In this document: positions 1 through 19,370 of the stretch, one piece after another
Layout: each line of letters begins with the position of its first letter
Position numbering within the stretch: the first letter of the stretch is position 1
Virus record (IMG/VR): IMGVR_UViG_2513237361_000014
Reading direction: 5' to 3' (one strand)
Source of the DNA: a virus
Taxonomy: Duplodnaviria > Heunggongvirae > Uroviricota > Caudoviricetes
DNA length: 19,370 nt
Program-made: the position numbers and the translations under genes
Notes under the pieces: model-generated
The model's database searches: none
Told to the model about the DNA's origin: nothing
The model's input: the letters and a program-made list of their open reading frames with translations, nothing else

Positions 1-300
1 ATGTCTCAGCCAGCGAAAGTTTTGCTGCTGTATGCCCATCCGGAATCTCAGGACTCGGTGGCAAACCGGGTACTGCTTAAACCGGCCACGCAGCTCAGCA
101 ATGTTACCGTGCACGACCTTTACGCGCACTATCCCGATTTTTTTATTGATATTCCCCGTGAGCAGGCATTACTGCGTGAGCACGAGGTGATTGTTTTTCA
201 GCATCCGCTTTATACCTACAGTTGCCCGGCGTTACTGAAAGAGTGGCTTGACCGGGTGTTAAGCCGTGGGTTTGCCAGCGGGCCCGTCAGCACCAGCTGA
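1..300 (+). pseudogene. kefG: KefG (K+ efflux ancillary protein) 5' fragment; KefG-like sequence ends near 285, then the frame runs 5 more codons to a stop
   Basis: Translation [94 protein letters not shown] matches my recollection of the KefG N-terminus. The tail PVSTS plus stop is unrelated, and only about 95 codons are present where roughly 184 are expected. Confidence 0.6.
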
Positions 301-524
301 TTGGTCAGTTTGCTGCGCTGAAGCAGCCACAGTCGGGAGCCGTAACGGTCATTCTGTACCGCAGGCCAGGTATCCCCCCACCATCCCATCGGGACGTCGG
401 CGTTGTCATCAGGCTCCGCCCGCCGCCAGGTAAACAGGGAAATCACCACGGCGCGGGTCAGCGGATCCAGCGGTGCGCTGGCGCAGGTGCGTTTACCGTT
501 CACCGTCAGCCACAGTTCCATCAT
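216..524 (-). pseudogene. Phage baseplate/tail protein, 3'-disrupted (Mu gp46-like by position); last ~23 codons read antisense through kefG
   Basis: ORF directly follows the two baseplate genes on the same strand with a 4-bp start/stop overlap at 521-524. The first ~80 codons are phage-like; the assignment is by gene order, not recognised sequence. Confidence 0.35.
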
Positions 525-1069
525 GCCTCCATCGCTTTATCAGGTTTGTCGGTGTTACTGCCCTGACCGTTCTCTCTGTGACGATGCCCGTTATAGGCAA
601 GCCGCATCGCTGACATGGTGGTGCCGCCGGAGTCGCACAGGTCTTTCACCTGTCCGGTCACTTCCAGATCCATTTCAAAACGTGCTTCAGGTGCATTGCG
701 AAACGTGATCGTTTTCCCTGCACCGTCCACCACGATCCCCTCCCGGGTCAGCGTCACAGACTGCCCCTGATCGTCATAGACAGCCACCTCACCCGTTTGC
801 AGCCCTTTCAGGCGGTAGCGCCGGTCCGACACCGTAACAACCACCGCATGAGAACGGTCGCCATCCGGAAACAACACCACCGCTTCCGCACCGCTGTTTG
901 CCCTTGCGGTAAAACCGTAGGGTTCAAGATATTCAACCCCGGCTTTGGGTTCACCGGCAATCAGGGACACATCCACGGTCTGACATTTCGTGGCGGCACT
1001 GATGCTTTTCACCACTGCCCGCCCAATCAGGCCGAGAAGTTGTCGCTGCATGGCTTCAATCGTCCTCAT
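521..1069 (-). CDS. Phage baseplate assembly/spike protein V-like (Mu gp45-like)
   Basis: 182-aa ORF whose C-terminal region (CDSGGTTMSAMRLAYNGHRH) resembles the spike-apex region of gpV-type proteins as I recall it. Its start overlaps the upstream gene by one base at 1069. Confidence 0.55.
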   Translation of the reverse strand: MRTIEAMQRQLLGLIGRAVVKSISAATKCQTVDVSLIAGEPKAGVEYLEPYGFTARANSGAEAVVLFPDGDRSHAVVVTVSDRRYRLKGLQTGEVAVYDDQGQSVTLTREGIVVDGAGKTITFRNAPEARFEMDLEVTGQVKDLCDSGGTTMSAMRLAYNGHRHRENGQGSNTDKPDKAMEA

Positions 1070-2091
1070 CAGAACGGGTCCTCCTGTACTCTGGCTTTTT
1101 TCTTTTTCCGCGCGCCGGGGGCTTCGGGTTCAGGCAGATAAGCGTCAGGCGGGCCGACACGGATTTCCGTCAGGGTGCCGTTCTGGTCCTGAGTAAACGT
1201 GACTTCCGAGACAAGCAGTTCGGTATTGTCGAAACCACAGACCGGATCGAAGACAATCACCCGCTGGTTGGGCTGCCACAGCGTACCGTTACCCTGTCGC
1301 CAGCCCTGCACCACATAGGTGGTTTCATCCGTCCGCGCCGCCCGTTTTCGGGCTTCAAAGTCAGCACGCGCAATACAGCCTGCCCCCGTGGCCTGCCCTG
1401 TCTGCCTGATATACATCGGACGGTAACGGGCAATAAATGCGTCCTCTGTGCGGGCCCGCAGCGCGGTGGTGGTGGCCTCACCGAAATCATCGTCGTTTCC
1501 GGCACGCTGCCCCGCCACCTGGTAAACAGAAAACCGCTCCCGGATACTCTTCTCCGTATCGCAGGAAAGGATGTTTTCCCCGAGTACCAGCGCAGTATGT
1601 GCCCGCGTTGAGCCAATACCACCAATCACCAGCCTGCCGTGCGGGTCGTCGTAAGCCAGTGCCTGCTGCTGACCGAGTATTTTGTTGATTACCTCAATCA
1701 CCGTTTCACCGTGATCGGGCTGGACGTCAGGAATAACACCCGACGGCGCACCGCTGTTCACCACCTCAATGCCGAAAGGCGCAGCAAGCGCCTGCGCAAT
1801 CTGCACCAGCGAGCGTCCGTTAAACTGTGTCGGTTCGGCTGCACAGTCAATCAGGTCAGCCGTCAGACTACGTCCGGCAATACCGGTGCTGACCGAACGG
1901 GCATCGTAACGAACGGGAGTCGCCTCCACCCAGCCGGTGCTCACCAGCTCATCACCAATCAGCACTTCCACTTTTGAACCGTTTTTAATGCGCGGCTGAA
2001 GCGTGGTGATACCCTCATCTCCCGGCCATTGGCGAGTGATCTCCACACTGAAATCCCGCGCCAGCCGTTCAATACCGGCACCGATGCGCAC
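1069..2091 (-). CDS. Phage baseplate hub / late-control-D-like protein (Mu gp44-like), probably 5'-truncated
   Basis: 340-aa ORF from a GTG at 2091. The frame stays open upstream to 2142 ([23 protein letters not shown]...) with no start codon before it runs antisense into the tuf start, so the native N-terminus appears to be missing. Confidence 0.5.
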   Translation of the reverse strand: MRIGAGIERLARDFSVEITRQWPGDEGITTLQPRIKNGSKVEVLIGDELVSTGWVEATPVRYDARSVSTGIAGRSLTADLIDCAAEPTQFNGRSLVQIAQALAAPFGIEVVNSGAPSGVIPDVQPDHGETVIEVINKILGQQQALAYDDPHGRLVIGGIGSTRAHTALVLGENILSCDTEKSIRERFSVYQVAGQRAGNDDDFGEATTTALRARTEDAFIARYRPMYIRQTGQATGAGCIARADFEARKRAARTDETTYVVQGWRQGNGTLWQPNQRVIVFDPVCGFDNTELLVSEVTFTQDQNGTLTEIRVGPPDAYLPEPEAPGARKKKKARVQEDPF

Positions 2092-2138
2092 CGATGTCCA
2101 GCCATTCCACTCCCGGCCATTTACCCGTAGCGTGACCC

Positions 2139-3322
2139 GTGTCTAAAGAAAAATTTGAACGTACAAAACCGCACGTTAACGTTGGTACTATCGGCCACGT
2201 TGACCACGGTAAAACTACTCTGACCGCTGCAATCACCACCGTACTGGCTAAAACCTACGGCGGTGCTGCTCGTGCATTCGACCAGATCGATAACGCGCCG
2301 GAAGAAAAAGCTCGTGGTATCACCATCAACACTTCTCACGTTGAATACGACACCCCGACCCGTCACTACGCACACGTAGACTGCCCGGGGCACGCCGACT
2401 ATGTTAAAAACATGATCACTGGTGCTGCTCAGATGGACGGCGCGATCCTGGTTGTTGCTGCGACTGACGGCCCGATGCCGCAGACCCGTGAGCACATCCT
2501 GCTGGGTCGTCAGGTAGGCGTTCCGTACATCATCGTGTTCCTGAACAAATGCGACATGGTTGATGACGAAGAGCTGCTGGAACTGGTTGAAATGGAAGTT
2601 CGTGAACTTCTGTCTCAGTACGACTTCCCGGGCGAGACACTCCGATCGTTCGTGGTTCTGCACTGAAAGCGCTGGAAGGCGACGCAGAGTGGGAAGCGAA
2701 AATCCTGGAACTGGCTGGCTTCCTGGATTCTTACATTCCGGAACCAGAGCGTGCGATTGACAAGCCGTTCCTGCTGCCGATCGAAGACGTATTCTCCATC
2801 TCCGGTCGTGGTACTGTTGTTACCGGTCGTGTGGAACGCGGTATCATCAAAGTTGGCGAAGAAGTTGAAATCGTTGGTATCAAAGAGACTCAGAAGTCTA
2901 CCTGTACTGGCGTTGAAATGTTCCGCAAACTGCTGGACGAAGGCCGTGCTGGTGAGAACGTAGGTGTTCTGCTGCGTGGTATCAAACGTGAAGAAATCGA
3001 ACGTGGTCAGGTACTGGCTAAGCCGGGCACCATCAAGCCGCACACCAAGTTCGAATCTGAAGTGTACATTCTGTCCAAAGATGAAGGCGGCCGTCATACT
3101 CCGTTCTTCAAAGGCTACCGTCCGCAGTTCTACTTCCGTACTACTGACGTGACTGGTACTATCGAACTGCCGGAAGGCGTAGAGATGGTAATGCCGGGCG
3201 ACAACATCAAAATGGTTGTTACCCTGATCCACCCGATCGCGATGGACGACGGTCTGCGTTTCGCAATCCGTGAAGGCGGCCGTACCGTTGGCGCGGGCGT
3301 TGTAGCTAAAGTTCTGAGCTAA
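2139..3322 (+). pseudogene. tufB: Elongation factor Tu, tufB-type (C-terminus ...VAKVLS), with a 1-bp deletion frameshift near 2635-2636
   Basis: GTG start followed by [27 protein letters not shown]. Frame 1 ends at 2666 (...[14 protein letters not shown]); a second frame carries the rest of EF-Tu ([15 protein letters not shown]...GVVAKVLS). The span is 1184 nt, one short of the 1185 nt expected for 394 codons plus a stop. Confidence 0.85.
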
Positions 3323-18572: not shown

Positions 18573-18705
18573 ACGGGTTCCAGACAATGTCCGGGCAGCG
18601 GTACGGCATTTCCCACGGAATACCGTCTTCCAGAATGCCGACCACGGCCACATCGGGAAAACCGGCAGAACGGTAAATCTCACCGGGCTGGGGAAAATCA
18701 AACAT
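18571..18705 (-). CDS. Small ORF A (44 aa), hypothetical
   Basis: [44 protein letters not shown]. Its ATG overlaps the stop of ORF B (ATGTTTGA). It is below the 60-aa cutoff of the ORF track. Confidence 0.3.
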   Translation of the reverse strand: MFDFPQPGEIYRSAGFPDVAVVGILEDGIPWEMPYRCPDIVWNP

Positions 18706-18985
18706 GCGTCCTGTCTCCCCGGTCTTTCTGCTGGGCGAGAAAATCGCGGCACAGGCCTTTGGCTTTCAGCTCATTCAGCACAAAATCAATATCTTCATTC
18801 AGGTAGCTGAAAATATGCGGAATATAGAGCTGATGCAGGCCGGAGAGTTCACGGTGAATCAAATCACCCCCAACAAACTGGGATACGGCGCTGGCGCGGT
18901 TGAGCTTATGGTAAGCCTCAATGCTGAGGTGTTCACGGGCGTCATGACGCGCTGAGACGGTCTGAGGGGCTTTTTTATTACGCAC
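18698..18985 (-). CDS. Small ORF B (~95 aa from GTG at 18985), hypothetical
   Basis: GGAGG lies 6 nt upstream of the GTG. Protein-like composition (...[69 protein letters not shown]...). The 147-aa form in the ORF track has an implausible Pro/Val/Cys-rich N-terminus. Confidence 0.4.
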
Positions 18986-19133
18986 GGGACACCTCCACCA
19001 CCGGCAGACGGGCAGCAAGGGAGAGCACATAGTCACGGACAAGGGAACGGCGGGCGCTGCGTTCATCACCGGCGACGGTGCGAAGCATACAGATACGGGG
19101 ATGACGGTCTGCGCGACGGACAGCCGCAAACAC
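18978..19133 (-). CDS. Small ORF C (51 aa from GTG at 19133, or 36 aa from ATG at 19088), hypothetical
   Basis: ...[36 protein letters not shown]. Its stop overlaps the ORF B start (GTGCGTAA). Coding status is uncertain. Confidence 0.25.
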
Positions 19134-19214
19134 AAAGACAAATTCAGGGTGTGAGGGGGTAAGGGTTGTAGCCAGGAAAAGCGCGCCAGCCGTCAGGTGA
19201 CAGTCCCGGCGGTG

Positions 19215-19370
19215 ATGCTGGAAAAAGTGATGGCGCTGGCAGGCAGTGAAATGAAGCGCCTGTATGCCGTCGGGAGTGAGAACGGGGGCGACGGTGACGC
19301 ATTCGTCAGGGAGGAACGCGAAGCAATGGACGTTGTGTTACAGGCGCTGGACGGGGAGCACATGTCATGA
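19215..19370 (+). CDS. Small ORF (51 aa), hypothetical; stop TGA at the window end overlaps an ATG (ATGA) that would start a gene beyond the window
   Basis: [51 protein letters not shown] has protein-like composition. It is divergent from ORF C across a ~60-bp gap. Confidence 0.3.

Follow-up and report, generated by a model that had tools for sequence, protein, structure and literature searches.

The stretch of DNA analysed here, 19,370 nucleotides long and referred to below as the window, corresponds to positions ~4,731,315-4,750,684 of GenBank AEME01000001.1 (assembly GCA_000208565.2, 4,809,826 bp), the sole sequence met under that assembly. The strain is Escherichia sp. TW09308, a natural isolate of cryptic clade V (E. 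marmotae) from Michigan freshwater, whose genome was released as a draft in 2011. Local BLAST searches against K-12, an e14-like prophage, IHE3034 and E. marmotae genomes placed eight junctions in the window (284/285, 2136/2137, 3324-3328, 3969/3970, 9400/9401, 10513/10514, 18571/18572 and 19176/19177), dividing it into nine blocks:

1-284, plus strand: block 1, the first 284 nt of kefG; 96.1% identical to K-12 kefG, with the alignment ending at 284
284-2136, minus strand: block 2, part of an e14-like prophage, carrying a Mu-type baseplate module; matches E. coli prophages at 99.3% identity, exactly from 284 to 2136
2137-3328, plus strand: block 3, putative collapsed tufA/tufB repeat contig; 98.9% identical to tufA and 98.5% to tufB
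3325-3970, plus strand: block 4, the 3' end of ymfQ and codons 1-96 of a prophage tail-fibre gene; 95.5% identical to positions 6545-5900 of the e14-like prophage locus (L001)
3969-9400, no single strand: block 5, native bamD (minus)-rluD-yfiH-RyfD-clpB (plus) segment; 5432/5432 positions identical to E. marmotae CP099351.1
9401-10513, plus strand: block 6, putative collapsed gadA/gadB core, from nt 293 of the coding sequence (CDS) to 4 nt past the stop; 94.2% identical to gadA and 94.0% to gadB
10514-18571, no single strand: block 7, native E. marmotae segment; 8055/8058 positions (99.96%) identical to CP099351.1, without a gap
16913-18174, no strand assigned: 1262-bp element within block 7, bounded by IS3-type terminal inverted repeats of 44 nt that are 98% complementary
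18572-19177, no strand assigned: block 8, fragment of a P4-like satellite (Icd-like protein gene region and neighbours); 99.3% identical to IHE3034 locus L009, 20190-20795
19176-19370, plus strand: block 9, fragment of a conjugative-plasmid leading region, with a 57-aa ORF downstream of an ArdA antirestriction gene

The original prediction, that loci not normally adjacent meet here at abrupt joins, holds: in none of 5426 E. coli genomes does a single locus contain at least 80% of the window. Block-wise BLAST bore out its breakpoints near 285, 2138, 3326 and 9397, at 10510-10556 and at 18572. The one put at ~4002, on the bamD stop codon, moves 33 nt to 3969/3970, since 34 nt of native sequence follow that stop, and those at 16913 and 18174 are not junctions, as 10514-18571 is colinear with CP099351.1 with three mismatches in 8058 nt and no gaps. 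The junction at 19176/19177, between the P4-like and plasmid pieces, had been missed. At all eight joins the flanking alignments abut or overlap by 0-4 nt, leaving zero bases unaccounted for and hence no linker, scar or vector sequence; no extra bases were present at any join. Neighbouring blocks share no common repeat, which indicates that the pieces were abutted and not mis-joined through one.

The two longest blocks are native segments of the E. marmotae chromosome. In CP099351.1 they lie at ~3.33 Mb (block 5) and ~0.55 Mb (block 7), 2.78 Mb apart, and the reference continues past both ends of each. Block 5, with RyfD at 6594-6732, includes 34 nt downstream of the bamD stop at one end and 114 nt downstream of the clpB stop at the other. 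Its left end falls 4 nt short of the end of an IS4 element that separates bamD from raiA in all five E. marmotae genomes compared and is absent from the window, while its right end is the base preceding the -35 box (CTTGTCA) of an rrn P1 promoter, where the compared rrn operons become alike. Block 7 carries fimE and fimB (both minus), nanC, nanM and nanS (plus), an HNH endonuclease remnant, the IS3-bounded element and the truncated P4-like genes sid', delta' and psu'. It is 99.5-99.9% identical to other E. marmotae, nine further assemblies of which have the same gene order and agree on the surrounding context, from which AEME01000001.1 alone deviates. On the left, the block stops 4 nt short of the left inverted repeat of fimS (TTGGGGCCA); on the right, psu continues in the reference, and other E. 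marmotae carry a native integrase for the P4-like remnant beyond the break. The ~91% identity of the fim-nan region to E. coli had suggested the natural gene order of a non-coli Escherichia as an explanation for the window; closed E. marmotae genomes keep an E. coli-like order, with these blocks megabases apart. Raw long-read error or chimerism was likewise ruled out by the 99.96-100% identity of the blocks to a closed genome.

In K-12, the similarity of tufA and tufB begins at the start codon and stops 2 nt after the stop codon; block 3 sets in 2 nt ahead of its GTG start codon (2139) and extends beyond the TAA stop (3320-3322) by 2-6 nt. At sites that vary between the K-12 copies it resembles tufA as far as CDS nt 290 and, from nt 596, mainly tufB; in between, at ~2636, a 1-nt deletion splits the ORF. 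Such a mixture, together with the frameshift, is as expected of a repeat whose two copies have probably been collapsed into one sequence. Differences between K-12 gadA and gadB are dense as far as CDS nt 242 and very few from there to nt 1404, with divergence setting in at nt 1405; the gad block spans 292 to 1404 (0-based), so that its right end is the last base common to both genes.

These limits bear on the suggestion that joins at exact gene boundaries betray annotation-guided assembly, and thus a designed or synthetic construct made from annotated parts. The limits of the tuf block do lie close to those of its CDS (2 nt ahead of the start codon and 2-6 nt past the stop), the observation that speaks for design, and to that extent the claim of gene-exact boundaries was accurate; that at the bamD stop codon is not real. 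The near-exactness of the tuf block is explained, however, by the natural reach of the tufA/tufB duplication, which itself coincides with the CDS, and both the tuf and the gad block end where the genomic copies cease to be alike, at or beside the ends of their coding sequences. Most other blocks begin or end within genes or between them (kefG nt 284, gp46, ymfQ, tail-fibre codon 96, gad nt 292, psu), and the source is the public draft genome record of an environmental isolate. The probability that the window is a construct is negligible.

The prophage pieces are cut internally. Block 2 comprises the 3' part of gp46, gp45/V and a baseplate protein gene lacking its first four codons; Pfam assigns the called genes to GP46, Phage_Mu_Gp45 and GpP-like, and their context is that of the e14-like prophage locus. 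Block 4 lies in the opposite orientation and ends on the right after the 96 codons of an N-terminus that is conserved among prophage tail fibres: on 294 other contigs there are partial tail-fibre proteins that are exactly 96 aa in length and stop at the same residue. The kefG piece is the tail of a native block that begins at least 6.3 kb upstream and retains the native gene order yhfK-crp-yhfA-prkB-yheU-yheT-yheS-kefG. A scan of genome contigs for the native kefG context returned genomes labelled E. coli, E. ruysiae, Escherichia sp. and Enterobacter and none labelled E. marmotae, and a 27-mer of the E. marmotae-type kefG had zero matches in a metagenome scan.

Block 8 is out of order with respect to block 7, the preceding psu piece of which maps to positions 23330-23458 of the same IHE3034 locus at 84.5% identity; it thus probably derives from a P4-like satellite other than the one that left the remnant in block 7. 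Block 9 extends beyond the window to ~19707. The exact 57-aa protein is found on plasmid-type contigs beside ArdA, SSB, ParB, PsiB, PsiA and Tra genes, and the DNA is 97.4-99.5% identical to the compared loci, in most of which the match starts at 19176 (at 19178 or 19197 in two). Chromosomal blocks flank this plasmid leading-region DNA, and further blocks of the kind lie past the window.

We conclude, with a probability of about 0.94, that the window is an ungapped concatenation of draft contigs, an artefact of assembly and deposition and neither a rearrangement nor a construct; the original prediction's own alternative of a chimeric assembly was essentially right. The assembler would have broken the TW09308 genome wherever it met multi-copy or two-state sequence, for example at tuf, gad, rrn, IS elements, fimS, related prophages, P4-like satellites and plasmids, and the repeats themselves may have emerged as short collapsed contigs, the tuf and gad blocks among them. 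These short-read contigs would then have been written consecutively as one 4,809,826-bp 'contig', with no N spacers to separate them and with their order and orientation left arbitrary, each junction being the end of one contig's text and the start of the next, with no recombination in a cell. The joining probably took place at deposition or scaffolding rather than in the assembler, and the IS4, prophage and P4 repeats are presumably multi-copy in TW09308 itself.

Several block ends do lie on repeat boundaries (tuf, gad, rrn P1, IS4, fimS, tail-fibre residue 96 and KefG residue 95), a description that excludes 284 on its right side, 2136, 3325, 18572 and 19177. Ends so placed would be typical of a short-read assembler that stops at repeats. 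The breaks fall 0-4 nt before the repeat and not within it; a plain de Bruijn assembler would not usually stop short in this way.

There is a slim chance that the assembly software itself made chimeric mis-joins within a contig, which would likewise be an artefact, is compatible with the identities of the blocks and the uniqueness of their arrangement, and differs in an aspect, namely who or what joined the pieces, that sequence alone cannot reveal. Assembler mis-joins, however, normally traverse a repeat common to both partners, and here the neighbours share just 0-4 nt; there are eight joins in 19 kb, with further ones beyond; the tuf and gad repeat contigs stand isolated between unrelated neighbours; and plasmid and chromosome occur within one 4.81-Mb sequence.

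That the mosaic is physically real in TW09308, the outcome of serial illegitimate or repeat-mediated rearrangements, is extremely improbable. Beyond the written sequence, nothing speaks for it but the richness of E. marmotae genomes in IS elements. It would require eight independent breaks in 19 kb, each precise to within a few nt at a repeat edge with the partner copy absent at the join; it would have left an isolated, frameshifted tufA/tufB hybrid between oppositely oriented fragments of one prophage; and it would have severed clpB from rrnG exactly at the -35 box. None of the joins recurs in any other genome or assembly. All three ORFs that derive from junctions are confined to one contig among ~15 billion proteins, and the chimeric ORF at 3681-4031 matched exactly one record, AEME01000001.1, which also holds the native genes upstream of the window.

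A weaker proposition, that at least one join is physically real, has a chance slimmer than that of assembler mis-joins, and the best candidate is a kefG truly interrupted at codon 95. A 95-aa KefG with the same end residue, named 'partial' by its sources, is present on 44 other contigs, and a cut point so widely shared hints at a recurrent insertion site of a multi-copy element; kefG continues beyond position 284 in all six related genomes compared. Were this join true, part of the mosaic would be a genuine repeat-driven rearrangement and not file concatenation.

Concatenation of draft contigs agrees with what is known of ungapped pseudomolecules, in which blocks near-identical to closed genomes abut cleanly in shuffled order and orientation, and in which chromosome, prophage, satellite and plasmid pieces share one sequence; 4.81 Mb approximates a genome with its plasmids. 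Contig concatenation usually inserts N runs or a labelled linker, and the window differs in having neither. Since nothing stands between the contigs, gene callers read across the joins and yield chimeric ORFs. The collapsed-repeat contigs of short-read drafts offer a second parallel: the tuf and gad blocks hold just the stretch common to two copies, the former mixing both, and the rrn P1, IS4 and fimS boundaries delimit unique blocks. In a multi-FASTA draft such contigs are separate short records, whereas here they are embedded between unrelated neighbours. Among publications concerned with the accession or strain, all of them by users of the record (the original PNAS genome paper lay outside this scope), no statement of contig concatenation was found.

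The window holds nothing biologically new: AEME01000001.1 looks like one contig but is a string of draft contigs, and adjacency within it misleads studies of synteny, calls of operons and islands, searches for gene fusions, prediction of prophages and plasmids, and machine-learning windows. Chimeric or truncated 'proteins' produced by these artificial joins are by now part of large protein collections: a KefG that reads through into phage sequence, a tail fibre that reads through in antisense into bamD, and a split EF-Tu. Block ends at tuf, gad, rrn, IS and fimS boundaries, combined with zero bases between blocks, provide a recipe for recognizing such records.

A superficial likeness to genomic islands and to IS- or phage-mediated mosaics exists, in that phage, satellite and IS-related DNA lies beside housekeeping genes with sharp changes in composition. 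In contrast to such islands, the eight true junctions carry no terminal inverted repeats, target-site duplications, att sites, integrase or tRNA target; there is no tRNA in the window, and the phage blocks start and end within structural genes. The earlier statement that IS elements are lacking at the breakpoints has to be amended: 16913 and 18174 are the window's only pair of terminal inverted repeats, which belongs to the IS3 family and lies inside a colinear block, and position 3969 is 4 nt from the end of an IS4 in all E. marmotae genomes examined.

A true mosaic of this type is the IS3-bounded element and P4-like remnant beside nanS in block 7, which are conserved in E. marmotae. Positions 16913 and 18174, as well as 16579-16588 and 18344-18444, were considered as junctions and rejected, all lying within the segment colinear with other E. 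marmotae; they represent natural deletions and the ends of the IS3-type repeats. Zero Pfam family matches were obtained for the 197-aa ORF (17371-17964) that the element carries along with the 3' fragment of an autotransporter gene. The repeat arm resembles the ends of IS3-family elements from E. coli (identity up to 100% across 52 nt), and the sequence between the arms shares 91.9% identity with an autotransporter/hypothetical protein pair of E. coli MS 16-3.

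An exact-sequence look-up of the ORF at 3681-4031, which spans the supposed join between a tail-fibre gene and bamD, returned one record only, GCA_000208565.2, in which AEME01000001.1 is a single 'contig' of 4,809,826 bp; window base 1 lies at about base 4,731,315 of it. According to a paper that used the accession, AEME01000001.1 is from Escherichia sp. TW09308, and AEME00000000 is the TW09308 genome in other papers, the strain being a clade V (E. marmotae) isolate from fresh water in Michigan. This clade V source accounts for the identity of about 91% between the fim-nan region and its E. 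coli counterpart. Immediately upstream of the window the record reads yhfK-crp-yhfA-prkB-yheU-yheT-yheS-kefG, the native E. coli order.

In none of 5426 E. coli genomes does at least 80% of the window occur in one place. Nine blocks emerge from local BLAST alignments to K-12 loci, an e14-like prophage, IHE3034 and genomes of E. marmotae.

Blocks of the window (strand where assigned), with content and nucleotide identity
Block 1, 1-284: 5' part of kefG; 96.1% to K-12
Block 2, 284-2136, minus strand: e14-like prophage (gp46', V, baseplate'); 99.3%
Block 3, 2137-3328: tuf; 98.9% to tufA
Block 4, 3325-3970, plus strand: ymfQ' and tail-fibre N-terminus; 95.5%
Block 5, 3969-9400: bamD-rluD-yfiH-clpB; 100% to CP099351.1
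Block 6, 9401-10513: gad core; 94.2% to gadA
Block 7, 10514-18571: fimE to psu'; 99.96% to CP099351.1
Block 8, 18572-19177: P4-like piece; 99.3% to IHE3034
Block 9, 19176-19370: plasmid leading region; 97.4-99.5% to plasmid-type contigs

These limits place six of the breakpoints of the original prediction correctly to within 3 nt. The one assigned to 4002 belongs at 3969/3970, 34 nt beyond the bamD stop, and a further junction, at 19176/19177, is real and was absent from the list. Two positions that had been read as junctions, 16913 and 18174, lie inside intact sequence: 10514-18571 is colinear with the closed E. marmotae genome CP099351.1, with 3 mismatches in 8058 nt and no gap (8055/8058 identical, at about 545,427-553,484). 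Block 7 is also 99.5-99.9% identical to other E. marmotae, with the same gene order in nine other assemblies. Block 5 is identical to CP099351.1 throughout (5432/5432, at about 3,332,673-3,338,104). The two blocks are 2.78 Mb apart in that genome, which runs on past every end of both. Block 5 also carries the sole Rfam family match in the window, the RyfD sRNA (RF02768, 125 bits) at 6594-6732 (+), in its usual site just upstream of the clpB start, which it overlaps. The 57-amino acid ORF of block 9 has exact matches on other contigs adjoining ArdA, SSB, ParB, PsiB, PsiA and Tra genes.

At all eight junctions the flanking alignments meet end to end or overlap by 0-4 nt, leaving zero unaccounted bases; where a block end lies at a repeat, the break falls 0-4 nt short of it. 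The block ends coincide with limits that are recognisable without reference to the window. In K-12, the resemblance between tufA and tufB begins only at the start codon and is lost 2 nt past the stop; the tuf block extends from 2 nt upstream of the start to 2-6 nt past the stop. The gadA and gadB genes of K-12 differ densely over their initial 242 nt, then hardly at all as far as nt 1404, and part again from nt 1405; the gad block comprises nt 292-1404. Block 5 ends on the right in '...ATATTTTTCG', where K-12 continues with CTTGTCAGG, the -35 box of rrnG P1 and the first position at which the compared rrn operons become alike; its other end stops 4 nt short of the end of an IS4-family element. 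Block 7 starts 4 nt from TTGGGGCCA, the left inverted repeat of the invertible fimS switch, beyond which fimA-fimH are present in every E. marmotae genome compared. Block 4 breaks off after tail-fibre codon 96, and on 294 other contigs there are 'partial' tail-fibre proteins with a length of exactly 96 residues and the same last residue, the sequences diverging directly after it.

Likewise, a 95-residue partial KefG with the same last residue as at junction 284 is found on 44 other contigs. KefG products cut at residues 91-98 (the partial proteins P0018, P0019, P0020 and P0023) recur in dozens of draft contigs, the 98-amino acid form on 37, suggesting that assemblies repeatedly break, or insertions recur, at this place in kefG.

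With the source, the block limits, the identity and continuation in closed genomes, the coincidences with repeat boundaries and the uniqueness of the joins all directly observed, we put at about 0.94 the probability that the window is an ungapped concatenation of draft contigs whose joins are not biological. Its features are those of an ungapped pseudomolecule that contains collapsed repeats. On this reading the contigs of a short-read draft of TW09308 stop at repeats and at one two-state switch, short collapsed contigs stand for the repeats themselves, and all were written end to end without N spacers, making the joins file artefacts. Presumably TW09308 carries several copies of the IS4, prophage and P4-like repeats. 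The tuf block has the look of such a collapsed two-copy repeat: at the sites where K-12 tufA and tufB differ it resembles tufA up to CDS nt 290 and, from nt 596 on, mostly tufB, and between these parts the CDS (2139-3322) has a 1-nt deletion at about 2636 that splits the ORF, a pattern that is suggestive only, as some of those K-12 differences may not apply to E. marmotae.

The joining probably took place at scaffolding or deposition, not inside the assembler. A mis-join within an assembled contig, itself still an artefact, is rather improbable: such errors usually run through a shared repeat, and neighbouring blocks have no repeat in common at any of the eight junctions. A physically real rearrangement in TW09308 is highly improbable. 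Eight events within 19 kb would be required, every one of them precise to the border of a repeat whose partner is missing, and the outcome would be a lone tuf, hybrid and frameshifted, between two pieces of one prophage in opposite orientations; no observation supports such a rearrangement, and the joins show neither terminal repeats nor target duplications of transposition, and no att site, integrase or tRNA of phage integration. The designed construct raised in the original prediction is close to inconceivable. The source record contradicts it, the boundaries are mostly intragenic, and the exact fit of the tuf block to its CDS arises because the tufA/tufB duplication naturally has that extent.

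All five E. marmotae genomes examined have an IS4-family element between bamD and raiA (in CP099351.1, positions 10773-12202 of comparison locus L030, just left of window 3969). It encodes a 442-amino acid transposase, interrupts the hairpin of the bamD terminator and is bordered by a direct target duplication of about 14 nt (CAGCCCTTGAGCTG); the insertion appears fixed and lineage-wide. The 1262-bp element at 16913-18174 has 44-nt inverted repeats (98% complementary) matching IS3-family ends in E. coli. Lacking a transposase, it holds the 3'-terminal ~310 nt of an autotransporter gene together with an AT-rich ORF of 197 amino acids (17371-17964) that has no Pfam match. Many E. marmotae assemblies keep this element at the same site, and its interior adjoins ICE genes in E. 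coli MS 16-3. The surrounding 16579-18571, like positions 1-2583 and 11059-15002 of comparison loci L024 and L041, is a decayed E. marmotae P4-like satellite downstream of nanS, consisting of the sid end, a delta gene reduced to some 25 codons and a psu that is truncated. The psu remnant of other strains runs straight into a PvuII-like restriction-modification system (the 'Esp' system of PMC3850674) and an integrase; in the TW09308 record this continuation must lie in another block.

Neither adjacency in AEME01000001.1 nor proteins predicted across its joins can be trusted. Three ORFs made or cut by joins (1-300, 3681-4031 and 2139-2666) stand as chimeric or truncated entries in a collection of about 15 billion proteins, each from this record only, and the 90% clusters of junction-derived ORFs include many 'partial' proteins that come from the ends of contigs in other drafts. 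The split tuf, the only copy in the window, has yielded gene-caller products of 175 and 163 amino acids, now in protein collections.

To the right of the window (positions 12000-14900 of comparison locus L048, about 19370-22048 in window numbering) the record continues with further short unrelated blocks. The plasmid leading region extends to about 19707, followed by about 1.7 kb more sequence, and a reversed plasmid-like piece occupies 21378-21955. After the plasmid pieces comes a chromosomal block, gabP-csiR-ygaU-stpA-alaE, which starts 1 base after the position of the K-12 gabT stop codon.
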